Assembly (NCBI GenBank): GCA_016188475.1
Contig: JACPHT010000007.1
Location: 80,467 to 144,466, forward strand
Source of the DNA: Candidatus Uhrbacteria bacterium
GTDB taxonomy: Bacteria > Patescibacteriota > Patescibacteriia > UBA9934 > GWF2-40-263
Direction: 5' to 3'
DNA: 64,000 nt
Shown here in pieces: positions 2,066 to 63,588 of this stretch (position 1 is its first letter; each line of letters opens with the position of its first letter). The notes under the pieces were generated by a model. The model was not told the origin of the DNA, searched no databases, and was given only the letters and a program-made list of their open reading frames with translations. A program made the position numbers and the translations under genes.

Positions 2066-3220
2066 ATGAAAATCGCAATGATTGGACAAAAAGGCATCCC
2101 GGCTCGGGCTGGTGGAATTGAGCGTCACGTTGAAGAGCTCTCCGCTGAACTTGCCGCGCGCGGACATGAAGTCCTCGTATTTTGTCGTTCGTGGTATGTC
2201 TGGCCAATTCGAAATCATCGCGGAGTTCGATGTATAAAAGCGCCAACAATTTCCACAAAACACTTGGACGCGATTGTTCACACATTTTTTTCTATTATCA
2301 AAGCCGCGCGTGAAAAGGTTGATATTTTTCATATCCACGGAGTTGGTCCATCTATTCTCTGTTGGCTTCCAAAACTTCTTCGTCCATCAGCGAGTGTGAT
2401 TGTAACTTTTCACAGTATTGACCGCCACAATGAAAAATGGGGATGGTTCGCGCGACAAATGCTTTCACTTGGTGAACGCATGGCTGTCACATTTCCAGAT
2501 GCAACAATCGCTGTTTCTAAAACCCTTGAAGCATATTGCAGAATGTCTCATGGCATTAATGCAAAGTATATTCCAAACGGCGCGCAGATTCCGCAAGCAG
2601 ACGCTGACTCAACAATTGTCACGGCTTTCGGTTTGGAACCAGGAAAATATCTGATGATGTGTTCACGCTTGATTCGTCTGAAAGCCGCGCACACGCTTAT
2701 GGACGCGTGGAAACAACTTCGTTCAGAACGTCCTGATCTCACATCAAATTTCAAACTTGCGATTGTCGGCGGGAGCGCGCGAACTGATGATTATGTCAGA
2801 TCGCTTTGTAACATGGCGCGAACTGATAATTCGATTGTTATGACAGGAACACAAACAGGTTCAACACTGCACGCGCTATTTCTCAATAGCTACGCTTGTG
2901 TGCACCCTTCTGAAGTTGAAGGGCTTCCAATCGCGGTGCTTGAAGGAATGAGCTATGGAAAATGCGTTCTTGGTTCTGATATTCCAGGAAACATGGAACT
3001 TCTTGAACAACATGGATTGACATTTATTCGAGGAAACGTTCAAAATCTAAAAACAAAAATTGTGTATATGCTCGAGCATCCGGAAGAAATCCGAGGGATC
3101 GGAAAACTTTCTCGAGAACACATTGCTAAACACTATGATTGGAAAGATATCGCTGAAACAACTGAATATCTATACGAACTTGTCCAACTTGAACCGGAAT
3201 TGAAAAACGCGAAAGCATAA
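2066..3220 (+). CDS. family 4 (GT4) glycosyltransferase
   Basis: N-terminal MKIAMIGQKGIPARAGGIERHVEEL and C-terminal EX7E motif (EVEGLPIAVLEGMSYGKCV), typical of GT-B fold group-1 transferases. Confidence 0.85.
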   Translation: MKIAMIGQKGIPARAGGIERHVEELSAELAARGHEVLVFCRSWYVWPIRNHRGVRCIKAPTISTKHLDAIVHTFFSIIKAAREKVDIFHIHGVGPSILCWLPKLLRPSASVIVTFHSIDRHNEKWGWFARQMLSLGERMAVTFPDATIAVSKTLEAYCRMSHGINAKYIPNGAQIPQADADSTIVTAFGLEPGKYLMMCSRLIRLKAAHTLMDAWKQLRSERPDLTSNFKLAIVGGSARTDDYVRSLCNMARTDNSIVMTGTQTGSTLHALFLNSYACVHPSEVEGLPIAVLEGMSYGKCVLGSDIPGNMELLEQHGLTFIRGNVQNLKTKIVYMLEHPEEIRGIGKLSREHIAKHYDWKDIAETTEYLYELVQLEPELKNAKA

Positions 3221-3592: not shown

Positions 3593-3756
3593 TTATTCCC
3601 TGAGCTTGTCGAAGGGAGTCGAGGAGGAGTAAAGAAGCCAACCGCTTGGCTTCGTACCTCTAAGACGGGTTGGACGATGTCTGGCTGAAAGCCAGACCGT
3701 ACAACGCCAACGACGAAAAGCTTAAAATTTATTCCTTCGACAGGCTCAGGAGATAA
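3593..3756. mobile_element. MITE-like element family A, long form (~165 bp)
   Basis: TIRs ttattccctgagcttgtcgaaggg / ccttcgacaggctcagg. Internal hairpins gaagccaaccgcttggcttc and gtctggctgaaagccagac. Near-identical copy at 26292-26456. Confidence 0.75.
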
Positions 3757-3774: not shown

Positions 3775-4992
3775 TCACAGCCACTTTACTACTTCCCTAT
3801 AAATCCCCATCAGTCGACGGTAATGTTCGTCCAACCTAAATTTTTGTTCAACAGTTTGCCGTGCGGCGCACGACATTTGTTTTTGCAAATTCGAATCGTG
3901 AAACAATCTAATCACTGCTTCAGCCCAGCCATGCAAATGAGTCGGCTGAACTAAAAATCCGTTCACTCGATCTTCAACAATTTCCGAAACTCCTCCAACA
4001 TCGCTTGCGATAACTGGCTTGCCATATGACATAGCCTCAAGCGCAACAAGCGGAAATACTTCGTGCATTCGTGAAGGAATCAAAACAGCACATGCCTTTT
4101 CATAAATCTGACGTAACTCGTCTCCAGTTCTAAATCCCAAAAAGTGAACATTGGGAGCGTCGAGCGCCAAATTGTGAAGATATTCCATTTGCGGACCGCG
4201 ACCTACGATATTGAATGAAATGTCAGGAAGCAACTTCGCAATATGAATGATCGTATCTATTCCCTTTTCTTCACTTAACCGCCCAACAAAAAGAAACGAA
4301 CCATCGTGTGCAAAAACTGGTTGTACTCTGCTCGCATCAATGCCGTAGTGATTCACGCGTATTTTCTCGCTTGAAAATCCTCTAAGTATCATCTGACGTT
4401 TAATATAAGCAGATGGAGCAATAAAAATTGCCACGTGTTTTTCGTAGATTCGCAACAAACGATGAAACTTATACACCGCCGTTTGCGCGAATGAAGCCAA
4501 CATTGAATTTTTGTGAAAACGCGAAAACGTACCGCGCACAATTCCAACATTTCTAAAATCTTTTCCGCAACCTTCAGCCCAAATTCCGTATTGAGGTGAA
4601 ATCAAATGATGATCGTGCACTGTCATAACAACTGGAATTTTTTGATCTGAAAGCGTGTGTAAAATTGACGGAGAAATTTGGGTATAGATGTTGTGAATAT
4701 GACAAAGATCTGGTTTTTCATTTGCAATAAGTTCTGCTAGTTTTCGTCGAGCTGAAAGCGAATAAAACATGTGGCCAAAAGTGTGAAGACCATTCAAGTC
4801 CAATGTCACGTTTTCAGTTTGCACTTCAGATGGGAAATATTTCTCAAACGGAGTTTCGATATTTTCCGGATACTTCATAGCAAACGGGATCACCGTATGT
4901 CCTTGTTCTTCAAGCCAACTCGAAAGAGAGAGCATGTAAATTTCAGCTCCTCCGCGAGGATAATAAAATTTGTTGGCTTGGATAATTTTCAT
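3775..4992 (-). CDS. family 4 (GT4) glycosyltransferase
   Basis: EX7E motif EVFPLVALEAMSYGKPVIASDVGG; GT-B N-terminal Rossmann segment. Confidence 0.85.
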   Translation of the reverse strand: MKIIQANKFYYPRGGAEIYMLSLSSWLEEQGHTVIPFAMKYPENIETPFEKYFPSEVQTENVTLDLNGLHTFGHMFYSLSARRKLAELIANEKPDLCHIHNIYTQISPSILHTLSDQKIPVVMTVHDHHLISPQYGIWAEGCGKDFRNVGIVRGTFSRFHKNSMLASFAQTAVYKFHRLLRIYEKHVAIFIAPSAYIKRQMILRGFSSEKIRVNHYGIDASRVQPVFAHDGSFLFVGRLSEEKGIDTIIHIAKLLPDISFNIVGRGPQMEYLHNLALDAPNVHFLGFRTGDELRQIYEKACAVLIPSRMHEVFPLVALEAMSYGKPVIASDVGGVSEIVEDRVNGFLVQPTHLHGWAEAVIRLFHDSNLQKQMSCAARQTVEQKFRLDEHYRRLMGIYREVVKWL

Positions 4993-5004: not shown

Positions 5005-6537
5005 CTAAAGCCGTAGGCTACTACTCTTAAAGCTATAAACTATTCCGCCGTAAAGCCACAAATAAAATGCCAAAGTTCGAATCTCAAAAATCGTGGAAGT
5101 AAACGCGTTAAACGCAACTCCAAGCATTATCGCGGCAAAACCGATTGCCAAGCCTTTCACATATTCATCGTTTGACGTGCGATAAATCAAAAGCGCTTTG
5201 CGAAATAACGCGATGTAAAGCCAAAGATAAAATACGATCCCAAGTGTGCCAGCCTCTCCCCAGAGTGAAAACCAGTTGTTGTCAATAAATCCTCCTGTTC
5301 CATAAACACCAAACGGGAGTCCAAGCTGATCATAAACACTTGTATTGTGAAGCGCGGCAACTGCCCCTCCTCCAAACTGCCCTGGTCCCCAGCCTAAAAT
5401 TGGTGAAGTAGCAACAACCGATGTTGGTGTATGAACATACCAAAACACTCTGCCTAATCCGTAGTATTCTCCTCTCCAGCGAGAATAACTAAACACTTCA
5501 AAAAATCTTTCTGGAAGTGTTTGACCAGGAACATCCGCAAGAAAACCGACTGTAAGCCCAGAAGCGGCAAGATAGCCAAGCACAATAAATATCGAAGCCA
5601 AAAGTCCTGCGAGAACTTTTTTGTCTCTCTTGATTATCAAACCAATAAACAAAAATCCGATTAAAAACGCAAACCATGACGAGCGCGAATAAGTCATGAC
5701 AAGAGCTGGAATACCAAGCGCGAACACCCACCAAACAATCGGTGGAATTTTGTTTGCGCGTTTGGTCATTGTGAAAAAAAATCCACTCGCGAGAATCAAA
5801 AAGAAATACAAATAATTTCCAAGACGATCATAACGCCCAAGCGTTGAAAACACGCGCGAGCCAGGATCCCAAAATTGTTCAACACCTTCTGTCAAAGTAA
5901 TCTCACCAAATGTTTTGCTGTCAGACGGCAGTAAAAGTTGATCAAGTGTTTCGCCTGCGAAAGATTGAACAATGCCAAGCGCTGATTGAAACAAAACGAT
6001 CGCAAACAAAACGATCGTCAATTTTTTTACGAACGATTTTGATGGCTGTAAATATACGACAAGAAAAAACACAAGCATGAAGCGAAGAATCTGACGAAGA
6101 CCAAGAAACGCGATCGGTAAAGGAACAAAATGAATCGCTGCCGCGGCAATGAGTGACAAAACAAATAAAATGAACGGTGCGTCAAGTGTTGTTTTTTTTA
6201 TGTGAATTTCACCGCGTAAAATTTTTATTAAAACAACAAACGCGACAAGATAAATCAAACCCTCGGAAAAATATCGCGCGAAAACGTAAATGTTGTCTGG
6301 AATGAATTTGAGAATGAAAGATTCAAACGGAAGATACGCGGCCAAAAACCCAAGTGTGAATAAAGGACGAACAAAAGTTACAATCACGACAATAATTAAA
6401 AATAAAAATGCGATAGCAAAAGAAGCGGAAAAAAAAGTTTGGATCAAAAGAAAAAAAGCAAGCAAACAAAACAAAGCGATTACTGCGCGTCTAGTTTGTT
6501 CTTCAGACTTAAAATAAATAGTTCGAAGGTTGAGCAT
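5005..6537 (-). CDS. O-antigen ligase/polymerase-like (Wzy_C family) polytopic membrane protein
   Basis: Roughly 10-12 TM helices plus the YSRSSWFAFLIGFL loop region typical of the O-antigen ligase family. Sits next to GT4 genes. Confidence 0.6.
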   Translation of the reverse strand: MLNLRTIYFKSEEQTRRAVIALFCLLAFFLLIQTFFSASFAIAFLFLIIVVIVTFVRPLFTLGFLAAYLPFESFILKFIPDNIYVFARYFSEGLIYLVAFVVLIKILRGEIHIKKTTLDAPFILFVLSLIAAAAIHFVPLPIAFLGLRQILRFMLVFFLVVYLQPSKSFVKKLTIVLFAIVLFQSALGIVQSFAGETLDQLLLPSDSKTFGEITLTEGVEQFWDPGSRVFSTLGRYDRLGNYLYFFLILASGFFFTMTKRANKIPPIVWWVFALGIPALVMTYSRSSWFAFLIGFLFIGLIIKRDKKVLAGLLASIFIVLGYLAASGLTVGFLADVPGQTLPERFFEVFSYSRWRGEYYGLGRVFWYVHTPTSVVATSPILGWGPGQFGGGAVAALHNTSVYDQLGLPFGVYGTGGFIDNNWFSLWGEAGTLGIVFYLWLYIALFRKALLIYRTSNDEYVKGLAIGFAAIMLGVAFNAFTSTIFEIRTLAFYLWLYGGIVYSFKSSSLRL

Positions 6538-6603
6538 GATAATAGTATAACAAAAATCCGGCTGTTCAGCAGTTCGCTGATACAGCCGGTGAGTTGATAG
6601 TCG

Positions 6604-8679
6604 CTACGGAGCGACACAGACGAACTTGACAGTCACAGTCTGGGACGTCTTCGCGTCGAGCGAAATGAAGTCTTCGCCGACCACGCCGCCAGAGACTGAT
6701 GCAGTTCCGTATGCGGCACACGTGCCGTCGAGTCCTGCCGCTTCGTTGTATGCAGTCACCTTTGACGTGCCGTCGACCGGTTCGCATGAAGTGTGTAGGC
6801 GCGCCGCAATCGTTCCGGTCCCGCTTGTCAGAATCTGGAGCGAGAACTTCGTTCCAGCCGCCGCGTCAGGCACGACCACGACTTCCGAACCCGAGAACGT
6901 TGTCTTGAGAGTTTTCGCGCCAGTGTTCGTCCAGCACTGATACGAGTCGATCGAGTTGGCCGCGTTGGGTTCCGTTGCCATGTCGATCTCTGTCTCGACA
7001 CCGCACGGAATTTTAAGCGCGTTCGCGCACGAGTCGCAGGCCGGAGTAACTCCGTCCGCGAGGAACTCTGTGTCGCCGTCGCAGTTGTCATCGTACGGCG
7101 TTATACAGACTTCCTCGACGTCAGGATTAACCTCAGAGTTGTCGTCATCGCAATCGCCGTACGCGCACGCGGCTCCATCTCCGTAGAACATGTCCGTGTC
7201 GCAGTATCCATCAGCGTCGTCGTCGCATCCCTCGTCGGTTTCCCCGTTGCAGTCGTTGTCGACTCCATCGCAGACTTCGAGCCCTTCAGGACTGATGCTG
7301 GCGTTTGCATCATTGCAATCGCCTTCATCGCACGCGGCGCCTGAACCTACGTTCAGATTGTCGTCGCAGTATCCATCAGCGTCGTCGTCGCATCCCTCGT
7401 CAGTCACACCATCGCAAGTGTCGTCCTTGCCATTGCAGACTTCGGAGTTGAGCTTCTTCGTGAGGTCTTCCTCTGCCGAGCAAACAGCAGACGACCCGTC
7501 AGCGGAGCAAGTGTTATAAGTCCCAGAGACCTTACAGACCCCCACTCCGTCCGAACATGCGTCGCCGAGGCCGAAGCCCTCGTCCACCTCGCCGTCGCAG
7601 TCGTTGTCCACATAGTCGCACATCTCCACTGCGTCCGGAGAAATATCCGAGTTCGTGTCATCGCAGTCACTTGCTGTGCACGTCGCGCCAGCTCCAACGG
7701 TCATAGTGCTGTCGCACCAGCCGTCGAGATCGTCGTCGCAGTCTTCGTCGATCGCGCCGTCGCAGTCGTTGTCGACTCCGTCACAGATTTCCGTGACATT
7801 CATGCCGACTTCGTCGCACTCGACTCCGAGCCCGTCAGCAGTGCACACGACAACGCCGTTTTCGCAGAAGTCCGCGTCAACGTCGTCGCAGGCAGATCCG
7901 AGCGTCGGAAAGTCTTCGTCAGCCGCTCCGTCGCAGTCATCGTCCGCGCCATTGCATGTTTCAGCTATGTTCTCGACGCTTTCATTCAAGCACTCTGTCT
8001 CGAGCTGGGAATCGGAGCACGTGAGCGTTCCGTTCTCGCACGAATCCGAATCTGCTCCATCGCACGCGACGCCCAGATCGAACGTCTCGTCAGTGTCGCC
8101 GTCGCAGTCGTTGTCCATGTCGTCGCACAACTCTGTCGACGCCTTTGTCATGTCCGCTTCGGCCGTGCATAGACAGGAATTAAATTTGCAATAGTTGACT
8201 CCCTTGTCTTCGCATGGTGTACCTTCCATGACGGTGCAATCAGCGTAGGCAAAGAAGCAAATTCCTCCCAGATCGGACTTATCGCTCGCTTCTGTAGTGA
8301 TACACGTCGGATCGAGATTGTCATTATCTGGATTCACAGCGTCGCACTCTTCGTCATTGGCACACTGAACGTATGCGCACGCCTTGATCGCATCCTCGCC
8401 GAGCTCCGGGTAGGTACATCCATCGTCCGACTCGTAGTAGTGGCAGAATCCATCGGGGTCGCAGATGAGGCGTTGACCAGGACCATACGCATTGCACGTA
8501 GGATCGTCCGGACCAGTGCATTCCTGCGGATCGCCGGTTTCCGGATCTATCTTGAGGGCGCTGTTGCTCGCTGAGAGTCCGGTGGATCCGGAACCTCCCG
8601 TGTTGGAATTGCTGGAATCGCATCCTGCCAAAGCCGAGATGCACCCTAGAACGAACAGGAACAAGAACAGGTTTCTCAT
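6604..8679 (-). CDS. secreted lipoprotein with many MopE-type putative metal-binding Cys/Asp repeats (CxDxDNDCDGxxDE)
   Basis: Lipobox MRNLFLFLFVLGCISALAGC. At least 8 repeats such as CDDTNSDISPDAVEMCDYVDNDCDGEVDEG. ~62% GC; strong SD aagaggag before the ATG. Confidence 0.8.
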   Translation of the reverse strand: MRNLFLFLFVLGCISALAGCDSSNSNTGGSGSTGLSASNSALKIDPETGDPQECTGPDDPTCNAYGPGQRLICDPDGFCHYYESDDGCTYPELGEDAIKACAYVQCANDEECDAVNPDNDNLDPTCITTEASDKSDLGGICFFAYADCTVMEGTPCEDKGVNYCKFNSCLCTAEADMTKASTELCDDMDNDCDGDTDETFDLGVACDGADSDSCENGTLTCSDSQLETECLNESVENIAETCNGADDDCDGAADEDFPTLGSACDDVDADFCENGVVVCTADGLGVECDEVGMNVTEICDGVDNDCDGAIDEDCDDDLDGWCDSTMTVGAGATCTASDCDDTNSDISPDAVEMCDYVDNDCDGEVDEGFGLGDACSDGVGVCKVSGTYNTCSADGSSAVCSAEEDLTKKLNSEVCNGKDDTCDGVTDEGCDDDADGYCDDNLNVGSGAACDEGDCNDANASISPEGLEVCDGVDNDCNGETDEGCDDDADGYCDTDMFYGDGAACAYGDCDDDNSEVNPDVEEVCITPYDDNCDGDTEFLADGVTPACDSCANALKIPCGVETEIDMATEPNAANSIDSYQCWTNTGAKTLKTTFSGSEVVVVPDAAAGTKFSLQILTSGTGTIAARLHTSCEPVDGTSKVTAYNEAAGLDGTCAAYGTASVSGGVVGEDFISLDAKTSQTVTVKFVCVAP

Positions 8680-8772
8680 CGCTCACTCCTCTTTGAAGAA
8701 CTATGCGGAAACCACGGCCGCACACCGCTCGGAGAGACTGATCAACCCCGACAATAATTCGTATTAATATCG

Positions 8773-8846
8773 TTATTCCCTGAGCCTGTCGAAGGGATAA
8801 CGACTATACTTATTAAATTTATTCCTTCGACAGGCTCAGGAAATAA
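8773..8846. mobile_element. MITE-like element family A, short form
   Basis: ttattccctgagcctgtcgaaggg ... ccttcgacaggctcaggaaataa inverted pair. Confidence 0.75.
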
Positions 8847-8971
8847 ATTTCACAGTATCTTTAGAAGGAAAATACGTTCTATTGCCGAAATTGTTCGTCT
8901 CAAAAAAATGGGACGGGCGCGAGAGAGGAAGTTAGCACATCCCCCGCGCCTCGTCCAGAGAAAGAAAGAAC

Positions 8972-10366
8972 CTACTGGCAGATCTCGAAATCCTCCAAGA
9001 AAAAGAGAAAATCGAGGCCAGGAACCAGCACTGTCACATCGCCGGGAGTTCCGCTGACTTCATCGCCGGTCAGATCGTCAATCACTGTCGTGTACTGACC
9101 TCCGACCCAGAACGTAAACGGATTGCCGTCCTCCACAACGTAGCTGTTTGTGTGAAGAACACCGCCGTTCTCGAGTTCGGCGCAGAGGTTCTTTGCCGTG
9201 ATGAAGAGATTGTTCTGATTGAAGAAGATACCTCCGTAACCGTCGTCTGTTTCGTAAAAGCCGGCCACTCCGCACTCGAATCCATCTTCTGCAGGAAATT
9301 CCTTTGGAAGAAAACACTCGAGTTCGATAGTTACGTCGGTATAGACGCAACCGTCTTCACCTTCGCACACTTCGGTCGTGAGCTTATCGTTGTCGTCGCA
9401 GAGATTCTTTCCAGGCCCGACTTCGTCGATCTTGCCGTCGCAATCGTTGTCTTCTCCGTCGCAGATTTCTCCGCCATCCGGATAAGAGTGGCTTTCCGCG
9501 TCGTCGCAGTCTGTCTTGTCTAGCACATAACCATTCTCGACAGAACAGCCAAGCTTTGACTCAAGCGGATCGCCGAACCCATCACCATCAGCGTCGAGAT
9601 AGAATGCGATCTTGACCCCCTCGTCTGTCAGTCCGTCGCAGTCGTTGTCAGCTTTGTCACAGACTTCAATCGCATCCGGATAGCTTGACGAGTCGTCGTC
9701 ATCGCAGTCGCTCGCGTTTCCGACGTAATCATTCGGCTGATCGCAAGCGGACAGTGCGACTTCTTCGTCACCGAATCCGTCGCTGTCCTCGTCGACGTAC
9801 CACGACTTCTGCGTCGTGTCGTCGAGCGACGTGTCTTCGTCGTCGATGTCTTCGTCGCAATCGTTGTCCAAGCCGTCGCAGACTTCGGTCGCGCTCGGAT
9901 TGACGTCCTTGTTCGAGTCGTCGCAGTCTCCGCCAACAGCGACAAGAAAGTTCGCGCCATCACATCCGTCAACGATCGACTGATCAGAGTCTCCGAATCC
10001 GTCATTGTCAGAATCGAGATACCAGACACTGCCCGTTGATTCGTCAACCACTCCGTTGCAGTTCTGATCCACATTGTCGCAGACCTCTGTTGCGTTCGGG
10101 TGAATAGCCGAAACATTGTCGTTGCAGTCCTGCATGAGCTCGTTTTCCGCATTGCCGCAGAACCCGTCGTTGTCCTGATCTTCACACACGAAAACCGGAG
10201 GACTTGAGGTGTCAGGCTCTGGCAGAGCCGAGTCAACACCCGGCTGTGGCGATTCGATGGCGTCCTGGCCGGAATATTCCGCTTCCAGGTTGCCGAATGG
10301 ATTGCTATCGCAACTGGCCGAGGCCAGTGCGAGAGCGACAAGAGCAGAACCGAGCATCTTGCACAT
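8972..10366 (-). CDS. secreted lipoprotein with MopE-type repeats (FxDxDGDGFGD + CDDxxxxxxPxAxExCDxxDNDCDG)
   Basis: Start chosen at MCKMLGSALVALALASASC (SD aaggagag 6 nt upstream). Repeats WYLDSDNDGFGD, WYVDEDSDGFGD, FYLDADGDGFGD. Confidence 0.75.
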   Translation of the reverse strand: MCKMLGSALVALALASASCDSNPFGNLEAEYSGQDAIESPQPGVDSALPEPDTSSPPVFVCEDQDNDGFCGNAENELMQDCNDNVSAIHPNATEVCDNVDQNCNGVVDESTGSVWYLDSDNDGFGDSDQSIVDGCDGANFLVAVGGDCDDSNKDVNPSATEVCDGLDNDCDEDIDDEDTSLDDTTQKSWYVDEDSDGFGDEEVALSACDQPNDYVGNASDCDDDDSSSYPDAIEVCDKADNDCDGLTDEGVKIAFYLDADGDGFGDPLESKLGCSVENGYVLDKTDCDDAESHSYPDGGEICDGEDNDCDGKIDEVGPGKNLCDDNDKLTTEVCEGEDGCVYTDVTIELECFLPKEFPAEDGFECGVAGFYETDDGYGGIFFNQNNLFITAKNLCAELENGGVLHTNSYVVEDGNPFTFWVGGQYTTVIDDLTGDEVSGTPGDVTVLVPGLDFLFFLEDFEICQ

Positions 10367-10519
10367 TGACCTCTCCTTGTTGTGCAGACCACACATCATG
10401 GCCTGATTTCAAGCTGTTTTCCAATAAAAATAGCCTAAAACCATTCCACGATGAACGCATATGTTTATCATTTTGTTGGAAATATGTCAATAGCGTGTAG
10501 AAAAAACATCCAATTTCAG

Positions 10520-10714
10520 TCATTGCGAGCGAAGCGAAGCAATCTGACCCGCAAGGTCTCATCCCAAGCCCTTCGACTTCGACAAATTTATAGCCTGAGC
10601 TTGTCGAAGGCTTAATTTGTCTTCGCTCAGTGTAAACTCCGTGAGCCGAAGGCGAACATGGTCGAGGGATCTCGCGTGATTGCTTCGTCGTCGCTTTGCT
10701 CCTCCTCGCAATGA
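10520..10714. mobile_element. MITE family B copy carrying a nested family-A element
   Basis: Same TIRs as 33-113 (tcattgcgag ... ctcctcgcaatga) with ccttcgacttcgacaaatttatagcctgagcttgtcgaaggc inserted inside. Confidence 0.55.
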
Positions 10715-10811
10715 CAACTATATTCCAAAAACTAAAGAGACCCCGGACAAACACTTGCAGTGTGCAAGTGAATGCCGGGGTCAGAAAGAAGAAAGGGGAC
10801 AAGTGAGGACA

Positions 10812-11792
10812 TTAGAACTGTATCAGAGCAGAACATCCTTGTCCATTGGGTGCAGACCATGTCTCGACATCCTCGGTGGTATAAACCACCCCCAGGAAGA
10901 TAACCTGGATAGAAACATCGTCGAGGATGCTGGCCGTGCGATCGTTGCCCATGCACAGCCACGAATCAGCCGGGTCGCCTTCGGCCACGTTGAAACGTAG
11001 GCCGAGGAAATTATCCGCGTCGTCGAACGACGCTTCGAAATACAGTCCACTCGAGTCGGACGTCGCGGCCTTGCCTTCAGTCCACCATCCGCCGAGATCA
11101 GACTCGACGGTGTAGACCTGATAGGACAGCACGCGATTCGCGGAAGAACCGTACCGGATCGTGATCGAGAGGTCCGCCTTCGGATCCTCCTGAACCGGCG
11201 CGGTCTCGTCGTCACAGTCGCTGTCAACACCGTCGCCAGGCTCGTCCTCGGCGCCCGGGTGGATGTCCGCGTTCGAGTCGTTGCAGTCGTTGTTGTTTCC
11301 CGAGTACCCCTTTTCGGAGCACACATACAACTCATCACCTGATCCGTACCCGTCGCCGTCCTCGTCGAGATAGACCACGATCGTTTCGAGTCCTTCGTCA
11401 GTCTCGCCGTCGCAGTCGTTGTCGATCTCGTCGCACAGCTCGGTCGCGCCAGTGTGGATGAAATATCCATCCACTAGCCCGTCCTTGTTTGCGTCGTCCG
11501 GGCTGTCGTTGCAGTCCTGCGACGAGCAGTAGCCATCGCCGTCGAGATCCTGACAGTCGGACGTCTCGGGCTCGGCCGCAGGCTCTTCGACAGGTTCGAC
11601 AGCCGGCTCGGACGTGGGCTTCTCGGGTTCGGCCGCAGGCTCCTCGACCGCGGGCTCGGTCTGATCGACCGCTCCCTCGTCGTCCACGTACTCGGCCTCG
11701 ATCCCTCCGCCACAGCCAGTGTTGAGAACGTTGATGGCAAAGATCGCCAAAGTCGCCAGCACCAGAGCGAGAACGGAATAGTTCTTCTTCAT
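10812..11792 (-). CDS. secreted lipoprotein, MopE-type repeats plus a C-terminal beta-rich domain shared with the 12626-13522 protein
   Basis: MKKNYSVLALVLATLAIFAINVLNTGC lipobox. C-terminal ~120 aa alignable with the 12626 gene (DLGGWW..SWLC.GN..AS). Confidence 0.75.
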   Translation of the reverse strand: MKKNYSVLALVLATLAIFAINVLNTGCGGGIEAEYVDDEGAVDQTEPAVEEPAAEPEKPTSEPAVEPVEEPAAEPETSDCQDLDGDGYCSSQDCNDSPDDANKDGLVDGYFIHTGATELCDEIDNDCDGETDEGLETIVVYLDEDGDGYGSGDELYVCSEKGYSGNNNDCNDSNADIHPGAEDEPGDGVDSDCDDETAPVQEDPKADLSITIRYGSSANRVLSYQVYTVESDLGGWWTEGKAATSDSSGLYFEASFDDADNFLGLRFNVAEGDPADSWLCMGNDRTASILDDVSIQVIFLGVVYTTEDVETWSAPNGQGCSALIQF

Positions 11793-11940
11793 TGCTAGTT
11801 CCTTTCTTTTGTTCCCTCCGGGGAACTCTGAACGGGAGCGTGCGAGCGAGAATGGTGACACACCAATCAAGCTATTTTGCACGCCACAGAGAGTCGTCCC
11901 CGGAAGGGTGTCGATCTCTGCGCTAGGAACACAATTCAAT

Positions 11941-12008
11941 TTTATTCCCTGAGCCAGTCGAAGGGATAAAATTGCTTATACTGCCTTCGACAAGCTCAGG
12001 CAATAATT
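11941..12008. mobile_element. MITE-like element family A, short form
   Basis: tttattccctgagccagtcgaaggg ... ccttcgacaagctcaggcaataat. Confidence 0.75.
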
Positions 12009-12036
12009 ATGGACATAGCGCAGAAATCGAGCTTAT

Positions 12037-12213
12037 GGACATCACATTATGACTCCGCACTCCATAAAGAATGAAAAATGGTAATCTGCTTGTTTTTCGC
12101 GTGGAAAATTTCTCACCGTATCTATTGATACGGCTCAAATTTTTCAACGCTCCAAAACTGTGCATCTCACTCATTTTTCATCTTTCTAAGTGCGGTTTCG
12201 TAATGTGGTGTCC
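12037..12213. mobile_element. MITE-like element family C (~177 bp), diverged copy
   Basis: Alignable over its length with 36001-36180 (ctccataaa..tgtttttcgc..ctcacNgtatctatNgataccgct..gctccaaaac..tttctaagt). TIRs ggacatcacattatga / tgtggtgtcc. Confidence 0.65.
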
Positions 12214-12413
12214 ATAAAAGGTACAATTTGTTCATTTTCAGAACAGATTATAATACCACTTTTTGACGATTTTGTCAATAGCCGAATTACGCTAAATATA
12301 TGAAAAAATAAGCCGATTTTTAGATATTTTTAGGAATTGTTTAAAATTTTTGACAAATACCCATTCGACTCCGGTAAATTTATTGCCTTAATCTGTCGTA
12401 AACCAACCATTTC

Positions 12414-12556
12414 TCTCGCTACCTGGTAGCGAGATGGGAATACAAGCTCAGGCAGTAATTTGCCTTCTTTCAGGAAATATTCGATTTCAGTAATAAAGTA
12501 AACAAAAAAGCCTGCTGGTTGAGAAGCAACCATTTCTCTCGCTACCTGGTAGCGAG
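12414..12556. repeat. two copies of palindrome D inside a 35-bp direct repeat (aaccatttctctcgctacctggtagcgagatgNgaata) 122 bp apart
   Basis: Exact duplicates at 12414-12434 and 12536-12556. Confidence 0.7.
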
Positions 12557-12625
12557 ATGAGAATAAAAACACCCACCGACAGAGACGTTGCAGGTTTGCA
12601 ACGTTCTGACGATGGGCAGATAGAA

Positions 12626-13522: not shown

Positions 13523-13603
13523 TGTAGACTCCTCTTTGTTTTCTCAGGTCATCCCTTTTGGCACTCACCCGAGTGCCTTTGGGAAACCAGGGTGTTTAGT
13601 ATC

Positions 13604-13673
13604 AATATTCCCTGAGGAAGGCCAATTACGGCCTTCGACAGGCTCAGGCAGTAATTGGCCGGAGTCGAAGGGC
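13604..13673. mobile_element. MITE-like element family A
   Basis: atattccctgagg...gccttcgacaggctcaggcagtaat...gtcgaaggg. Confidence 0.65.
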
Positions 13674-13753
13674 TTTGATTTCAAACATCCTAGTTTCCCA
13701 TTTTGATTTTTCAATTTACTTTCTCCTCATATCAGAAGTCGAATTATTATTAC

Positions 13754-13789
13754 CGCCTTCGACAGGCTCAGGCAATAATTCTACTTTTG
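13754..13789. mobile_element. MITE family A solo TIR
   Basis: gccttcgacaggctcaggcaataat. Confidence 0.6.
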
Positions 13790-14048
13790 GTATGAGAACT
13801 CCACACGAGAACCGTGTGGAGTAGATTGTGAAGTGGGACCTGCTCCGTCCTCGTCAGCCAGATGGCGTCAGAGAAACGGAGCAGGGTTGCCCAAGATGCG
13901 GGGAGGAGGCCGCCTAGGGACTATTTCCAAATGCGCGATCTTGCCTCTCACGGGCGCCCTGGCATCTCTTCAACGTACACTTCGGTACGTTTTCAGAGTT
14001 GCCAGCCCGTTCAAGGCAATCTCATCGCATTTGGAAATAGTCTTTGCA

Positions 14049-15518: not shown

Positions 15519-15620
15519 CGTAAAAATCCTTTCCCCCTCAAGGGAACTTCTGATTGACAAGCGCTTCAGCGAAGAACTCCTTCGCTTGTTCGCTTGCCGC
15601 AGAGCCGTCCCCTCAAGGGA

Positions 15621-15778: not shown

Positions 15779-15850
15779 ACCCTTCGACTTCGGCAAATTT
15801 ATTGCCTGAGCCAGTCGAAGGCATAAATTTGCCTTCGCTCAGGGAATATA
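15779..15850. mobile_element. MITE-like element family A
   Basis: cccttcgacttcggcaaatttattgcctgagccagtcgaaggc...gccttcgctcagggaata. Confidence 0.7.
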
Positions 15851-17831: not shown

Positions 17832-17907
17832 TTTATCTCCTGAGCCAGTCGAAGGAATAAATATAAGAACATACCGCATTACTGCCTTCGACAGGCTCAG
17901 GCAATAA
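17832..17907. mobile_element. MITE-like element family A
   Basis: tttatctcctgagccagtcgaagg ... gccttcgacaggctcaggcaataat. Confidence 0.75.
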
Positions 17908-17938
17908 TCTTTCTAGCCTTCGACTGTTCGGCACAACA

Positions 17939-18703: not shown

Positions 18704-18878
18704 ACCTGTCGTTTGTTGCCAAGAGACAAATGGGCCGACTTTTTCTTGGCCTTATACATAGAGTGGAGGCAGAAAAAGCGTCCCGTAACTGTCTCTTGTG
18801 GACCATTGTGGTTTATTGGCTGGTTGAAGGCTGAAGAGTAAGGTTTATAAGATCTGTGGTACAACCGCTACTTCTGTA

Positions 18879-19625
18879 TTATTCTCCTTTAATTTCCGCA
18901 GCTATTTTCCCGCGTACAATAACAGAACCGTCTTTATATTCAATATCCTGAATCTGCACATATGATTCGAGCATCTTATTTCCATTAGCAAGCCGATCTT
19001 GAATAATTGATCGCAAAAACAAGTTCGTCAATGAATCAGGTATAAACAAAGAGCCAATCTTGAGTTCTTCAGGAACGAGTTCGATCTTCCCATCTTTCAC
19101 GTTTGCTTTTATTGAAAACAAAATCGCTGAACCGGATTTGGAATTTTCAAGCGGTAAAAATAAAGTCAAACCTTTGTCTTGCGAAATTGTAACTTGAGAA
19201 AAAGACGAATCAATAAATCCATCGGCCGCATTTTCAAGAATATCACGCAAAGAAGCTGTAAGAGAAGATTCGCTAAGTGAAAGTGAAATCACTTCATTCA
19301 CAGAACCTGCCGCAAGTTTTGACAAAACTTGCTCCTCAATAACTTTTTCTACAGGAACGCCTGGAGAAACCAATCGTCCTGGCTCTGGTTTTTGATATGT
19401 AAATTGAGTGAACACTGGAATATACACAATTCCAGTTGAAGCAAGCGCCCATGCGATTGCCGTGGAGAATAAAACTATCAAAATAAAAAAAATAGCAAAA
19501 CAACTCCGAAATGGATGACGTTGTTTTGTTGAACCAATCTCTTTAATCACCTCCCCTTTCATCTGTTGCAATTCTTCTCTAACATCTGAACCTTTTTCGA
19601 TACGGGACATATATCTATATTCCAT
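18879..19625 (-). CDS. hypothetical membrane-anchored protein
   Basis: Single TM helix (FAIFFILIVLFSTAIAWALAS) followed by a soluble domain. Confidence 0.5.
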   Translation of the reverse strand: MEYRYMSRIEKGSDVREELQQMKGEVIKEIGSTKQRHPFRSCFAIFFILIVLFSTAIAWALASTGIVYIPVFTQFTYQKPEPGRLVSPGVPVEKVIEEQVLSKLAAGSVNEVISLSLSESSLTASLRDILENAADGFIDSSFSQVTISQDKGLTLFLPLENSKSGSAILFSIKANVKDGKIELVPEELKIGSLFIPDSLTNLFLRSIIQDRLANGNKMLESYVQIQDIEYKDGSVIVRGKIAAEIKGE

Positions 19626-19716
19626 GAGCCTGGTGAAGGGAATAATATGCGAAATAATATTTACTGCCTTCGACAGGCTCAGGTAATAACTTAACCTTCG
19701 ACAGGCTCAGGCAATA
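19622..19716. mobile_element. MITE family A, composite (one left TIR, two right TIRs)
   Basis: gagcctggtgaaggg ... gccttcgacaggctcaggtaataa ... ccttcgacaggctcaggcaataa. Confidence 0.65.
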
Positions 19717-19723
19717 ACTTTTG

Positions 19724-22879: not shown

Positions 22880-22956
22880 ATTATCCCTTCGACAAGCTCA
22901 GGGAATAATTGGCCGAGTCGAAAGCTAAGTTATTGACTGAGCCTGTCGAAGGCCAT
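22880..22956. mobile_element. MITE-like element family A
   Basis: aattatcccttcgacaagctcagggaataatt ... ttgactgagcctgtcgaaggccataa. Confidence 0.7.
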
Positions 22957-23078
22957 AACTTTACGCTCAAAACCTTGACAAACTGACACAAATTTGCTTT
23001 ACTGAAAGGTAAAAATTGATTATATTTTAGTTCAATTTTGCTCTTGTTATTTGCAAACTTGTGAGCGAATCTCCTTGA

Positions 23079-26291: not shown

Positions 26292-26456
26292 TTATCCCCT
26301 GAGCTTGTCGAAGGGAGTCGAGGAGGAGTAAAGAAGCCAACTGCTTGGCTTCGTACCTCCGAGACGGGTTGGACGATGTCTGGCAAAAAGCCAGACCGTA
26401 CAACACCAACGACGAATTCGTCAAAAATTTATTCCTTCGACAAGCTCAGGAAATAA
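26292..26456. mobile_element. MITE-like element family A, long form (second copy)
   Basis: About 95% identical to 3593-3756. Differences fall in the hairpin loops (ccgc->ctgc, ctgaaag->caaaaag) while the stems are preserved. Confidence 0.75.
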
Positions 26457-26655
26457 ATTTATTAACTCCACTTTACACGAATACTTGCCCTTCGACCATT
26501 CAATTTGTCATAGCCATCCAGAGTTAAATAGAATGGCGACAAGCCCAGTTAGAAGCAATGCTCCTAACTGGTCAAGCTCAGGACTGCGCGTTGTCACATT
26601 CCATGACAACGCTTGTATTTTTTCACTGTTTTGCCTATACTGCCATCATCAAATT

Positions 26656-28625: not shown

Positions 28626-28688
28626 CATTATTGCCTGAGCTTGCTTGCCGACCATAGCCTCTAGCGAAGGTTGGTCGAAGGCAGTAAT
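28626..28688. mobile_element. MITE family A variant with 30-bp internal insertion
   Basis: cattattgcctgagcttgcttgccgaccatagcctctagcgaaggttggtcgaaggcagtaata. Confidence 0.55.
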
Positions 28689-28705
28689 ATACGAATCAAT
28701 AGTTT

Positions 28706-32236: not shown

Positions 32237-32905
32237 ATGAAATACAAAAACGCAATTATTTCAATCATCATAATCATCTTAATTCTGGCCATCGCAGTTA
32301 TCTTTTGGACACAGCAAAAAATCGATTCAGACAAAACTTCATGGAACTCAAACCTACTAACATCCGTTTTTCGGCCACAGCTAATCGCTGAAGCAGAACG
32401 CGGTTCTTCTTCATTTATTCGTCTGACATGGCAAAAACCAGAAACAACCTACAATCATTTTCTAATCACAGTCACTAATCCGCAAACAGACTGGTCGCGG
32501 ACTGAATCAGGCGAACATGAGCGAGTAAGTTTGGACGTTTCCGATCTCGAACCTGATACAACATATACATTTAGTGTTCGAGCATGCGGTGATCCGGATT
32601 GCAAAACCTGGATCACGTCAAATGAAAAACCAAGGGCGCGAACTGAAAAAATGTATTGGAAATTTGTTGAAACAAAATTTTCTGACAGCCTTCCAATAAA
32701 AGAAGGTTGGGAGTCAAACATTGATTTAGAACGATCTGTCTTTCTTACGATCGATAACAAACTTTGGACTGAAAATAAAGACGACTGGCAAATCGCCAAT
32801 GTTTATGTCCAATCAAAACCGACATACAAAATTGTTTTGAAACTGATCTCAAGTGTTGAGGATGAAAAAGAAAAAACGCTCTTTGCGGAACTGTTGAATC
32901 CATGA
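32237..32905 (+). CDS. membrane-anchored protein with fibronectin-III-like domain
   Basis: N-terminal TM helix IISIIIIILILAIAVIFW. LTWQKPETTYNHFLITVTNPQ..DTTYTFSVRACG resembles FN3. Confidence 0.5.
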   Translation: MKYKNAIISIIIIILILAIAVIFWTQQKIDSDKTSWNSNLLTSVFRPQLIAEAERGSSSFIRLTWQKPETTYNHFLITVTNPQTDWSRTESGEHERVSLDVSDLEPDTTYTFSVRACGDPDCKTWITSNEKPRARTEKMYWKFVETKFSDSLPIKEGWESNIDLERSVFLTIDNKLWTENKDDWQIANVYVQSKPTYKIVLKLISSVEDEKEKTLFAELLNP

Positions 32906-32907
32906 CT

Positions 32908-32985
32908 ACTGCCTTCGACAGGCTCAGGCAATAACTTAGCCTTCGACCGTTCGACAAGCTCACGAGAGACCAGCTCAGGCAATAG
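32908..32985. mobile_element. MITE family A remnant overlapping the pyk stop codon
   Basis: gccttcgacaggctcaggcaataa ... cgacaagctcacgagagaccagctcaggcaatag. The last TIR supplies codons ...ITIA plus stop of pyk. Confidence 0.6.
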
Positions 32986-42354: not shown

Positions 42355-42422
42355 CCCTTCGACTTCGGCAATTATTGCCTGAGCCTGTCGAAGGCCGTAA
42401 TTGCCTTCGCTCAGGGAATAAT
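42355..42422. mobile_element. MITE-like element family A
   Basis: cccttcgacttcggcaattattgcctgagcctgtcgaaggc...gccttcgctcagggaataat. Confidence 0.75.
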
Positions 42423-52590: not shown

Positions 52591-52663
52591 CCCTTCGACT
52601 CCGGCAAAATTATTGCCTGAGCCTGTCGAAGGCTTTAATTTTGCCTTCGCTCAGGGAATAAAA
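52591..52663. mobile_element. MITE-like element family A
   Basis: Same architecture as 42355-42422. Confidence 0.75.
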
Positions 52664-55551: not shown

Positions 55552-55593
55552 CGATTTTTACCGGTTTTAAGTAAAGTCAAGGAGTCGTACCTT

Positions 55594-55920: not shown

Positions 55921-55926
55921 AGAGAG

Positions 55927-56344: not shown

Positions 56345-56359
56345 AGGGCTAAGTTCAAA

Positions 56360-56373: not shown

Positions 56374-56398
56374 GAGTATCTTAGTGTTGAGAACTGAC

Positions 56399-58050: not shown

Positions 58051-58126
58051 TTTATCTCCTGAGCCTGTCGAAGGAATAAATTTTAGAACAGTTCATCTTT
58101 ATCCCTTCGACAAGCTCAGGGAATAA
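58051..58126. mobile_element. MITE-like element family A
   Basis: tttatctcctgagcctgtcgaagg ... cccttcgacaagctcagggaataa. Confidence 0.75.
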
Positions 58127-58149
58127 CGACGTTTCGTTTGACATTCTAT

Positions 58150-61383: not shown

Positions 61384-61457
61384 TTTATTCCCTAATCCTG
61401 TCGAATGGGTAAAATTTGGCAAATTTGTATACAGCCTTCGACAAGCTCAGGCAATAA
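61384..61457. mobile_element. MITE-like element family A (diverged left TIR)
   Basis: ttttattccctaatcctgtcgaatgg ... gccttcgacaagctcaggcaataat. Confidence 0.65.
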
Positions 61458-61718
61458 TAGAAATATTTCAACAGCCTAGAATGATAGCTTGAAACATAGA
61501 TTATTTCATGTTAAAGTCACGCCCAGATGGACGTTTAGTGCCTTCGCCACGCAAATGACGTGGCTCGGAGCTAAACGCCTCGCCTGGAAATGCACAATCC
61601 TTCGGCTTGTCCATTTCGCTCACTCGGACGTTTAGCTCAGCTTCCGCCAGAGGCGGACCCGCCTTTGGCGGGGGTTACAAGCCCGAATGACCGAACAATA
61701 CAAACAAAATGACATGGT

Positions 61719-61795: not shown

Positions 61796-61829
61796 TGTTA
61801 TTTTGAAATAGTCGTTCGGTCGTGCTGGC

Positions 61830-61959: not shown

Positions 61960-63588
61960 ATGACTATGGACAAACCGAAAATAGATTTGTTGAAACAGAA
62001 GTATCAACTCAACGCTCACAAGAAGAACAACCTTCTTGTTTTTGGTCGCGCAATGATTATCGTGCTTGCGATCGGTGCTGTAATTGGGGTTTCGTTTTCA
62101 TATCGCATCAGTTCGACGACAACAAGTTCAAACGATTTTCCAAAAATTTCACTTCTTTCAACGATTCGAAATTTTGTTGATGGAGATAAATTAAAAGGAG
62201 AAGAAAACGATCGAGTAAATTTGCTTCTTATGGGAATTGGCGGCGAAGGTCATGAAGGTCCTCAACTCACGGACACGATCATCTTTGCAAGTTTCCAGCC
62301 ATCAACCGGAAAAATTGGGTTGATGTCACTTCCGCGCGACATGACAGTTCCGATTCCCGGATATGGATATCGAAAAGTTAATCACGCAAACGCACTTGGG
62401 GAAGTAGACAAAACAGGATCGGGACCGAAACTTGCATCTCAAGTCATCGGACAAGTCTTAGATGAAGATATCCAATACTATTTTCGAGTTGACTTTAATG
62501 GCTTCGCACAGCTTATAGATCAAGTCGGAGGAATTGATGTTTATGTTGAACGCGGATTCACAGATGCGCAGTATCCGGTGTTAGGAAAAGAATATGATGA
62601 GTGTGGAGGACAAAACCAAGAAGCTGGAGAGGCTAAAGAGGCTGGAGCGGAAGGCTTCAGCCTTCCAGAAGTTGAAGAAGCTAAAGAATCTGGAGAAGTT
62701 TTATTGCCTTCGACAAGCTCAGGCAATATCGCTCCAAATTATTCATGTCGCTTTGAATCTTTAACTTTTCAAGAAGGCTGGACTCACATGAACGGAGACA
62801 CGGCTCTCAAGTTTGTTCGCTCGCGACACGGAACAAACGGTGAGGGATCTGATTTTTCGCGTTCAGCTCGTCAGCAAAAAGTTCTGCTAGCGATCAAGGA
62901 TAAAGTTTTTTCTGCTTCAACATTTCTGAATCCTGTTCGTATGAATCGAATCTTTGACACTCTCAAGCAAAACATTGCTACAAATTTAGATGTGTCAGAA
63001 ATTTTGCGTCTTGCTCGCGCGATTCAAAATCTTGATTCAAATCAACTTACACACAAAGTAATTGATGCATCTGACAATTCACCTCTTTACGCAACCACGC
63101 TAAATGGATCGTTTGTTCTTCTTCCAAAAAATGATGACTGGCGACCACTTCAAAAAATGGCTGAATATATTTTTACGTCAGATTCTGGTTACGAACGTTT
63201 CGCTTCAACGCCGAATGAAAAACCAAAGTTTGTAAAAGTTGAAATTCAAAATGGGACAAACATAACAGGCCTCGCGTTTAGAGCTTCACAAATGCTCGAT
63301 GGTCAAGGTTTTGATGTAATAAAAGTTGGAAACGCAATGTCAAGAAGTTATGAGCACACAGTAATCTATGACTTGACAAACGGAGCGCGAGCGAGTGAAC
63401 TCAAGGCCTTGAGCGATTTTCTGAAAGCAGATGTGACACTTTCCGCAACTGGTTGGATGGTAAGCGGAGAAGTTGTGCCAAAGGAAATTTCAGTTACAAG
63501 TGAAGAATTTGAAAAGCTCGCTACTGAAGAAAACATTGATTTCCTGATCATTCTTGGTGAAAATTCGTCGAGCTTGGTAATGCAATAA
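61960..63588 (+). CDS. LytR-CpsA-Psr (LCP) family cell-envelope phosphotransferase with an in-frame MITE-derived insert
   Basis: TM anchor; LCP core NLLLMGIGGEG...LMSLPRDM...HANALGE...FRVDFNGFAQLIDQVGGIDV; C-terminal LytR_C-like domain. The insert LLPSTSSGNIAP at 62700-62735 is encoded by a family-A TIR. Confidence 0.8.
   Translation: MTMDKPKIDLLKQKYQLNAHKKNNLLVFGRAMIIVLAIGAVIGVSFSYRISSTTTSSNDFPKISLLSTIRNFVDGDKLKGEENDRVNLLLMGIGGEGHEGPQLTDTIIFASFQPSTGKIGLMSLPRDMTVPIPGYGYRKVNHANALGEVDKTGSGPKLASQVIGQVLDEDIQYYFRVDFNGFAQLIDQVGGIDVYVERGFTDAQYPVLGKEYDECGGQNQEAGEAKEAGAEGFSLPEVEEAKESGEVLLPSTSSGNIAPNYSCRFESLTFQEGWTHMNGDTALKFVRSRHGTNGEGSDFSRSARQQKVLLAIKDKVFSASTFLNPVRMNRIFDTLKQNIATNLDVSEILRLARAIQNLDSNQLTHKVIDASDNSPLYATTLNGSFVLLPKNDDWRPLQKMAEYIFTSDSGYERFASTPNEKPKFVKVEIQNGTNITGLAFRASQMLDGQGFDVIKVGNAMSRSYEHTVIYDLTNGARASELKALSDFLKADVTLSATGWMVSGEVVPKEISVTSEEFEKLATEENIDFLIILGENSSSLVMQ

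Follow-up and report, generated by a model that had tools for sequence, protein, structure and literature searches.

Results

Family A is a dense set of intergenic repeats

We analysed a stretch of 64,000 nucleotides of contig JACPHT010000007.1 from a Candidatus Uhrbacteria bacterium (hereafter the window), in which a short inverted sequence, that we call family A, recurs between the genes. The gene content is like that of the candidate phyla radiation (CPR), with a pilin of the type IV secretion system (T4SS) type, a DUF5656 protein, TSP3 and MopE repeats and a small housekeeping set, and the best named homologues of the SmpB protein are from Candidatus Uhrbacteria (72-74% identity). Metagenomic contigs from SRR12113419, SRR12113385, SRR12113401 and SRR12113422 match the window at 100% identity. 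The ends of three of these contigs lie shortly after the gene at 2066-3220 and some hundred bases short of the first element, and they may reflect the repeat.

When the 16-mer CTGAGCYTGTCGAAGG was searched with up to two mismatches, we found 26 matches in the window compared with 0.08 expected from dinucleotide-preserving shuffles, and none of 100 shuffles reached 26. With the 17-mer CCTGAGCYTGTCGAAGG and up to three mismatches, 28 core copies were counted at 17-18 loci. All these loci lie between credible genes, often inside operons, and their density is approximately one element per 3-4 kb. An earlier note, made from the sequence alone, had described a dense, non-coding and intergenic family at 19 sites; such a family is indeed present, and none of the 19 sites lacks a copy, although some copies are split or degenerate but still recognisable. 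The copies form neither a CRISPR array nor integron attC sites, since they are dispersed over 64 kb in both orientations and among housekeeping genes; neither cas nor intI genes were found among the 40 open reading frames (ORFs) of the window by a Pfam scan.

The ORF calls that overlap the elements are artefacts or rebuilt gene ends. As had been supposed, the peptides that extend the N-termini of several ORFs result from reading through the elements. Thus, the true start of IF3 is the ATG at 26656 (MRIHRHR, conserved with a relative) and the TTG start at 26485 is rejected, while the 248-aa ORF begins at MSRIEKG. For the pyruvate kinase gene, it is the last three codons and the stop (..TIA*) that come from the element. 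For annotation this matters, because the units create spurious ORF extensions and spurious small "proteins".

The unit is a hairpin with an invariant tip

The basic unit of family A is a hairpin of approximately 24-31 nt, whose tip is the invariant 13-mer TGAGCYTGTCGAA and whose closing base pairs covary. The arms in the window genome read TTATTSCC ... GGSAATAA and pair with each other, and the bases immediately before and after the 17-mer form a C-G, G-C or T-A pair in 25 of 27 window copies. The two ends of each putative element had been said to covary with one another; the compensatory changes in the hairpin are real, but each side of a unit covaries with the opposite side of that unit and not with the distal repeat. 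The real unit is therefore much smaller than the element of approximately 160 bp with terminal inverted repeats that had been proposed, and inverted doublets are found at only 6-7 loci.

The pairing of the arms is also seen when the flanks are exchanged: a copy's own flanks have a mean complementarity of -7.5 kcal/mol in the window, compared with -3.9 kcal/mol (sd 0.49) for flanks swapped between copies, and in 118 loci of other genomes the values are -8.87 and -6.74 kcal/mol (sd 0.30), respectively. We also searched the fetched loci with the bare 13-mer TGAGCYTGTCGAA, which leaves the flanks unconstrained, although most of these loci had been chosen with the 16-mer. The two closing bases around the tip were CC/GG, GC/GC (23), GG/CC (15), GT/AC (5), AT/AT, AC/GT and CG/CG, nearly all complementary. 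The covariation score of 150 distinct copies reaches 0.432, compared with 0.164 after shuffling; not one of 500 shuffles scored as high, and the value is above every slid control. At the third closing position the pair CG is found in 54 copies, UA in 41 and GC in 33, and 13 are unpaired. The three closing pairs are formed in 91-99% of copies and those further out in approximately 55-65%.

On one strand, the tip could be drawn as U-A, G.A, A.G and G-C pairs with a CYUGU loop, and we propose that GCCUGAGCUUGUCGAAGGC may form tandem sheared G.A pairs. A Y-GA-R context favours such pairs, and both GA steps of this strand (the GA strand) sit in such a context. The opposite strand gives only a 13-nt loop. 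At the pair adjoining the putative G.A pairs, a relative of the window genome, L129, carries a double change from U-A to C-G (CCCGAGCCTGTCGAGGG).

A related hairpin, gtcatCCTGAGCGAAGCGAAGGATc, lies at 19555-19585 of L129; it keeps the 17-nt frame but CGAAG replaces CYTGT at the tip. Composites of the window carry CCCTGAGCGAAGG, a shorter form of this hairpin. By their sequences, these hairpins suggest that a wider superfamily of tips may exist.

The elements were gained in the lineage of the window genome

Three relatives, L127, L128 and L129, share their gene order with the window. L127, whose SmpB is 87% identical, has no core copy in 4.1 kb and L128 none in 16.4 kb, while L129 has 3 variant core copies in 20.4 kb, compared with the 28 core copies in the 64 kb of the window. 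The junctions that hold elements in the window are short or overlapping in the relatives. The SmpB-IF3 junction measures 390 nt in the window and 65-122 nt in the relatives, and that between the DUF5656 and PDZ genes, which holds the doublet at 17832, 135 nt and 4-7 nt. Between the 135-aa and 252-aa genes, where the units at 19616 lie, 113 nt in the window correspond to a 14-nt overlap, and at the pyruvate kinase/fn3 junction 69 nt correspond to an overlap of 11-34 nt. The reverse is also seen, since a doublet of L129 lies at a junction where the window has no element.

The small number or absence of copies in the relatives, together with their short or overlapping junctions, means that the expansion is lineage-specific. 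Since L129 has a doublet where the window has none and the window has elements at junctions that are short in the relatives, the elements were gained after the lineages split, independently and at different sites. The effects in the sequence are that genes that once overlapped or abutted are separated, stops are supplied and strong hairpins are added to the transcripts.

At 18704-18878, the 252-aa and DUF5656 genes are separated by 175 nt, compared with 3-8 nt in the relatives, and this spacer has no family-A core. It may be an insertion of a different element.

The tip recurs in many bacterial phyla and in viral contigs

We scanned one genome per species with the 16-mer and found at least 120 loci; the figures given here for other genomes rest on the matches listed. 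By our own arithmetic, a 16-mer with one twofold position has approximately 555 chance hits in 596 Gb, and the hit count alone therefore proves nothing. The flanks are more informative. Among the matches listed, 137 lie in genome contigs, and these have G at position 17 in 99% and a Watson-Crick third closing pair in 82%, compared with 25% by chance. Tails recur as well, such as GGCGAA, GGCGAACGG, GGACCG, GACGAA, GATGAG and others. Many of these loci hold several copies, arrays or doublets, and approximately half of the matches listed (105) have an inverted partner within 250 nt.

The carriers include Chloroflexota, Actinomycetota, Alpha-, Beta- and Gammaproteobacteria, Bacteroidota and Cyanobacteria, and also Acidobacteriota, Planctomycetota, Nitrospirota, Myxococcota and several CPR groups. 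Among them are cultured Microbacterium, Novosphingobium, Sphingomonas and Pedobacter, and plasmids of Comamonas and Moraxella, which have no annotation at the sites. Carriers that can be cultivated and hold many copies include Microbacterium mangrovi, Sphingomonas gilva, Novosphingobium flavum and Comamonas. Viral contigs also carry the core, with the G present in 85% of the matches listed. The motif is thus not confined to the window, and the 13-mer tip is the same in bacteria of many phyla. This conservation is the surprising part of the finding.

It could be argued that the likeness across phyla is due to chance or contamination and that the family of the window is private. The number of chance hits expected would leave room for this, because counts alone are inconclusive, but the nearly constant G17, the excess of Watson-Crick third pairs and the recurring tails in the matches listed are not those of random hits, many loci hold several copies, arrays or doublets, and cultured isolates and plasmids are among the carriers. 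This explanation is refuted by the flank signature and the complementary closing bases, and we consider it hardly credible.

The orientation of the units relative to genes is unbiased in other genomes, with 47 sense and 38 antisense among the matches listed (19 and 13 for singles). Units or doublets are arranged in tandem in the loci L008, L013 and L016. The L008 locus, from Microbacterium mangrovi, contains tandem arrays at 4440-4680 and 6440-6650 with periods of 54 nt and approximately 71 nt, and local tandem duplication therefore also amplifies the units.

Two possible origins of the core were rejected. A link to HIP1, or a cyanobacterial origin, is not indicated, as GCGATCGC is not enriched (2 hits, 1.3 expected). 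An origin from, or complementarity to, rRNA, tRNA or tmRNA was also discarded: the best match in the E. coli rrnB operon was at most 8 nt and none was found in the tmRNA and tRNAs of the window.

Units insert without target duplication

Precise insertions of a 24-nt unit, made of the 17-mer and a 7-nt tail, are observed in other genomes. Such a unit interrupts heptamer arrays in perfect phase in L045 and L037, and in L078 it interrupts a sequence whose uninterrupted paralogue is present in the same locus. The unit is also found in the centre of another core in L224, L064, L074 and L122, and at 32948 in the window. The boundary ambiguity of these 24-nt insertions is at most 1 nt, and therefore there is no target duplication.

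We also looked for target-site duplications at five candidate boundaries of six doublets of the window and detected no direct repeat of 3 nt or more; most boundaries gave 0-1 nt and one boundary of the doublet at 11941 gave 2 nt. This absence argues against an IS630/Tc1-type or other DDE mechanism.

Inverted doublets and their passenger

The doublets have pairing ends of approximately 23 bp and occur in a long and a short form. The long form is represented by a doublet of 164 nt at 3593..3756 on the plus strand, with a GA-strand unit at 3599-3615, an inverted unit at 3734-3750 and, between them, a structured passenger of approximately 115 nt (~3608-3722). Its predicted RNA fold has an energy of -86.3 kcal/mol (z = -8.1). 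A second 164-nt doublet with the same passenger lies at 26292..26456 (plus strand) in the SmpB-IF3 spacer.

Short doublets of 65-77 nt align with the long ones as internal-deletion forms and share their ends. On the plus strand they are found at 8773..8846, where the alignment shows the deletion (units 8779-8795 and 8824-8840), and at 11941..12007 (units 11948-11964 and 11984-12000). On the minus strand they lie at 58051..58127 (units 58058-58074 and 58104-58120) and at 17832..17908 (units 17839-17855 and 17885-17901), the latter being followed by a partial unit, CCTTCGACTGTTCGGC, at 17917-17932 in the 135-nt spacer. An inverted pair of opposite polarity, without assigned strand, occupies 22880..22958 downstream of the tmRNA gene (units 22886-22902 and 22936-22952), and a decayed doublet, also without assigned strand, lies at 61384..61458, with a degenerate unit at 61391-61407 and an intact one at 61435-61451.

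A metagenome scan with the interior of the 164-nt form as the query gave the loci L252, L253 and L254/L255, which have a GC content of 0.41-0.44 and differing neighbour genes (ExoVII, ThrRS, ParAB). They carry a structured sequence of approximately 150 nt, CCATGTCGAAGGGAG...GGAGACATGG, with a minimum free energy of -101.7 kcal/mol (z = -9.25), that is nearly identical in three contigs (L254, 5525-5725; L253, ~1245-1460; L252, ~10860-11075). Its outer closing stems are completely different between the contigs, yet complementary in each. It closely matches the interior of the 164-nt form over approximately 115 nt of alignment and is without the family-A ends. We found no full copy of it in the window and no Rfam family that matches it; it could be a small RNA gene or another mobile element. 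By this sequence match, the interior of the 164-nt form is a captured passenger and not a remnant of a transposase gene. Since the same passenger lies between the same two units in two unlinked copies of the window, at 3593 and 26292, the doublet moved as one piece with its cargo.

These data bear on the earlier note's main proposal, namely that family A is a classical miniature inverted-repeat transposable element (MITE), a deletion derivative of an insertion sequence (IS), moved by a DDE transposase that binds 23-bp terminal inverted repeats. Inverted doublets of 65-164 nt with such pairing ends at six or seven loci, and long and short forms related by internal deletion, are what this proposal would predict. 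Nevertheless, the other 10-11 loci, hence most of them, are not doublets, the supposed terminal repeat is itself a self-contained hairpin with a covarying stem, no target-site duplication was detected at any boundary and 24-nt units enter without one, the interior of the long form is a passenger, and neither the 64-kb window nor the fetched loci yielded an IS bounded by such ends. A classical MITE is for these reasons very improbable.

The reverse transcriptase of the window belongs to a separate system

The only reverse transcriptase (RT) gene of the window (RVT_1, 54511-55551, minus strand) is part of a complete diversity-generating retroelement (DGR) at 54511-57016. The template repeat of the DGR lies at 55919-56052 and the variable repeat at 56391-56524, at the 3' end of the ORF at 56402-57016 (minus strand). 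The two repeats, of 134 nt, diverge at adenines of the template; over the repeat with 10-nt flanks, 9 changes are A>G, 5 are A>C and 2 are A>T, and the non-adenine differences are attributed to the 10-nt flanks. Therefore, we rejected this RT as the mover of family A.

One could still suppose that units are transcribed and reinserted via reverse transcription. Insertion without target duplication, RNA-like features such as the Y-GA-R tandem mismatch context and the CUUG-like loop, the reported transcription of a related doublet (RF02901) and the presence of an RT gene in the window are compatible with such a route, but that gene belongs to the DGR, no RT family is among the commonest neighbours of units elsewhere, and both gene-relative orientations are equally common in other genomes. 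We regard it as improbable.

Other arrangements of units in the window

Besides the doublets, the window has single units, tandem units, units nested within another unit's loop and split units. The cores that are split are interrupted at one shared central point (GAC^ARG on one strand) by 24, 31, 48 or 80 nt. Single units are found on the minus strand at 13749..13779 (core 13756-13772) and 62700..62730 (core 62707-62723).

A nested composite of approximately 65 nt is present in 5-6 copies, in which an outer core is split exactly in its middle by an inverted full unit. At 10569..10631 (plus strand) the outer core CCCTTCGAC..GCTCAG is split by the unit at 10594-10610. Further composites on the plus strand lie at 15780..15844 (central unit 15805-15821), 42355..42416 (42378-42394) and 52591..52656 (52616-52632), and one on the minus strand at 13606..13673 (13632-13648). 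A degenerate composite with an extra insertion occupies 12360..12478 on the plus strand. Inside the latter, at 12398-12430, there is a second repeat, aaccatttctctcgctacctggtagcgagatg, which contains a small hairpin and recurs at 12528-12560, at the start of the ORF at 12557-13615.

At 19616..19718 (minus strand), within the 113-nt spacer, a degenerate unit (19623-19639) is accompanied by two units in tandem, at 19667-19683 and 19695-19711, whose period is 28 nt. The SmpB-IF3 spacer has a second insertion relative to L127 at 26486..26613 (plus strand), in which the core CCCTTCGAC / AAGCTCAGG is split centrally by 80 nt (26497) and followed by a hairpin. At 28626..28690 (minus strand), the core of a unit is split centrally (GAC^AAG) by 31 nt (28650). 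Finally, 32905..32985 (minus strand), the region that supplies the last codons and the stop of pyruvate kinase, holds a unit at 32912-32928 and a second core at 32940-32979 that is split by the precise 24-nt variant unit CGTTCGACAAGCTCACGAGAGACC at 32948.

We also noted some features of the neighbourhood. The tmRNA gene (22286-22676, 140.9 bits) and smpB (25819-26265) are 3 kb apart and both are adjoined by family-A elements. The region 6600-15600 has a GC content of 0.52-0.56, compared with approximately 0.42 elsewhere, and encodes copper-binding MopE-type repeat proteins, with family-A elements between their genes. The ORF at 61822-63588 probably has a miscalled start, because a second, weak tRNA call (61818-61880, 35 bits) overlaps it there.

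Discussion

Family A as a probable local branch of a class of mobile hairpins

The reading that we favour, with a confidence somewhat above even, is that family A belongs to a very widespread class of tiny, non-coding and non-autonomous hairpin repeats, mobile via a single-stranded hairpin, and forms a local branch of this class that has recently been amplified. It is the best supported of the readings considered, and it places family A with repeats of the REP/REPIN (repetitive extragenic palindrome and REP doublet forming hairpin) or SDR (small dispersed repeat) kind. The earlier note had left the choice between MITEs and REP-like modules; a REP-like nature fits the evidence better than a classical MITE, with a unit smaller than the one proposed there.

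According to this reading, units would be copied in trans through a single-stranded hairpin intermediate recognised at the invariant tip. Their targets would lie in intergenic DNA and would often be the apical loop of a hairpin that is already there, which may belong to another unit, and the target would not be duplicated. Two inverted units would make a REPIN- or MITE-like doublet that can move as one piece and carry a passenger, as in the 164-nt form. The most likely mover would be a single-strand-specific HUH nuclease or transposase, of the RAYT (REP-associated tyrosine transposase), IS200/IS605 or IS91 kind, or else a conserved host enzyme.

Several observations weigh against this reading. 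As the earlier note had stated for transposases, none is present in the window, and our Pfam scan of the 40 ORFs also found no HUH protein or recombinase among them. The 146 ORFs that flank units elsewhere fall into 196 Pfam families with no more than 4 members each, and the 25 commonest, all of them ordinary metabolic families, include no mobilising enzyme. An enzyme encoded by the elements themselves would moreover be hard to square with a tip that is invariant across phyla. No pairs of empty and filled sites were seen within the population, the metagenomic contigs all being 100% identical to the window, and insertion boundaries in the window genome cannot be mapped to the base because the comparison genomes are only 72-87% identical in SmpB. 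As to the hairpin, the compensated changes in the arms could partly stem from templated correction of quasi-palindromes and not from selection, and the tandem G.A pairs that would extend the stem are absent from the ViennaRNA prediction, so that we keep this extension as an inference only. Lastly, by our own reading, all 8 clear cases among the non-doublet units of the window have their GA strand sense to the local genes, with an apparent exception at 62707; five of the eight belong to one composite subfamily, and gene direction is confounded with replication direction. This bias could reflect an RNA-level role or a replication-strand effect.

The sense bias also bears on another possibility, that the hairpins are modules of the host under selection for a role as transcript ends or stabilisers, RNase sites or sites that bind a conserved protein, as proposed for enterobacterial REPs, with their spread being secondary. 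The strictly intergenic position of the elements, often within operons, their very stable folds and their invariant tip, one strand of which may form tandem G.A pairs, agree with this, as does a related doublet that is a candidate small RNA in Aggregatibacter, whose consensus RF02901 has the same core (Oogai et al. 2017, PMC5909427). On the other hand, sister genomes with the same gene order do without the elements and have abutting or overlapping genes at these junctions, the listed loci of other genomes have no orientation bias, copies stand beside unrelated genes in all kinds of contexts, and many are decayed, split or nested, as is typical of selfish repeats. Taken together, selection for a host function as the primary cause appears unlikely to us.

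A broader proposal can be put forward only tentatively, as possible and less than probable: the TGAGCYTGTCGAA tip may mark a class of minimal mobile elements that is essentially pan-bacterial. The unit of these elements would be 24 nt long and insert with no target duplication, and they would be moved by a conserved host enzyme or by a widely shared enzyme of single-stranded nucleic acids that reads the tip. Such a conserved tip-reading enzyme would explain why the tip is invariant from the CPR to the Actinomycetota, while the stems drift with genome composition. If one 13-base tip underlies repeats in most phyla, a single recognition event would be very widely shared and its enzyme would be a concrete target for discovery. 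The present case also carries very small mobile repeats, a poorly understood phenomenon, beyond the cyanobacteria. Even the streamlined genome of a CPR bacterium is colonised at approximately one element per 3-4 kb, with overlapping genes separated, gene ends rebuilt and, possibly, short-read assemblies broken.

Comparison with known systems

In the open-access full-text literature, we found nothing relevant on the core (both strands, as DNA or RNA), on its spurious peptides or on MITEs in the CPR. We found no Rfam family that matches the motif at the gathering score, either in the window or in 18 loci with several copies.

Correia, ERIC, RUP and Nezha are examples of bacterial MITEs, which are non-autonomous, intergenic elements of 50-200 nt with pairing ends and with long and short deletion forms; they can supply stops and hairpins to neighbouring genes, and they have target-site duplications and a parent IS that shares their ends. 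Family A is similar in its paired ends, its deletion forms and its supply of stops, whereas its unit is several times smaller, and neither a target-site duplication nor a parent IS was found in the window or the fetched loci.

HUH enzymes offer another comparison. The rolling-circle nick sites of phiX174 and pC194 read CTTG^ATA, and IS91 inserts beside CTTG or GTTC without duplication. A conserved sequence in a hairpin loop above a variable stem, and insertion without duplication, are common to these sites and to family A. By analogy, the probable insertion point in the loop, CYTG^T or CYT^GT, would resemble the CTTG^ of phiX174, pC194 and IS91; this likeness is only an analogy because it rests on four bases.

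The only database entry that we found to touch the motif is RF02901 (AaHKsRNA41, Aggregatibacter sRNA 41), with scores of 31 bits in the L066 locus and 20.6 bits in the window that are far below its gathering score of 97. The source of this entry is an RNA-seq catalogue, in which it is one candidate small RNA of one species and a repeat family is not discussed (Oogai et al. 2017, PMC5909427). Its consensus contains the same inverted doublet, GCUGAgCUUGcCGAAGC ... UUCGgCAAGcUCAgC, with a tip that differs by one base (CUUGC).

The REP/REPIN-RAYT system (Bertels and Rainey 2011, PMC3116915) resembles family A in that its repeats are short imperfect palindromes, extragenic and in high copy number. 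Like family A, REPs are non-coding, occur as singlets, inverted doublets and clusters, and show no target duplication, and their doublets seem to be the replicating unit. They differ in that REPs are specific to a species or genus with a conserved stem, whereas family A has an invariant tip across phyla and a variable stem. At its foot, the REP hairpin also bears a conserved GTAG or CGTC tag, while the flanks of family A read TTAYNS.../...SRATAA without GTAG, and CGTCG is restricted to one of the two ends in the long-form subfamily. A cognate RAYT gene is usually flanked by REPs; we found no RAYT gene in the 64-kb window or near the units in the fetched loci.

The SDRs of Nostocaceae, to our knowledge, have no known enzyme. 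SDR4-6 are reportedly units of approximately 24 nt (21-27 nt) that insert precisely, including into tandem heptamers and other repeats, and SDRs are said to form a hairpin with compensatory changes and to have no coding capacity. According to passages of papers that cite the SDR work, SDR5 inserts precisely into HIP1 and SDRs are not found outside Nostocaceae. While SDRs have been reported only from this family, the family-A core has carriers in many phyla, including the CPR bacterium from which the window comes. What the two share is the precise insertion of a unit of approximately 24 nt into heptamers and other repeats, a likeness of description. By this analogy, the SDRs of Nostocaceae would be the closest concept to family A.

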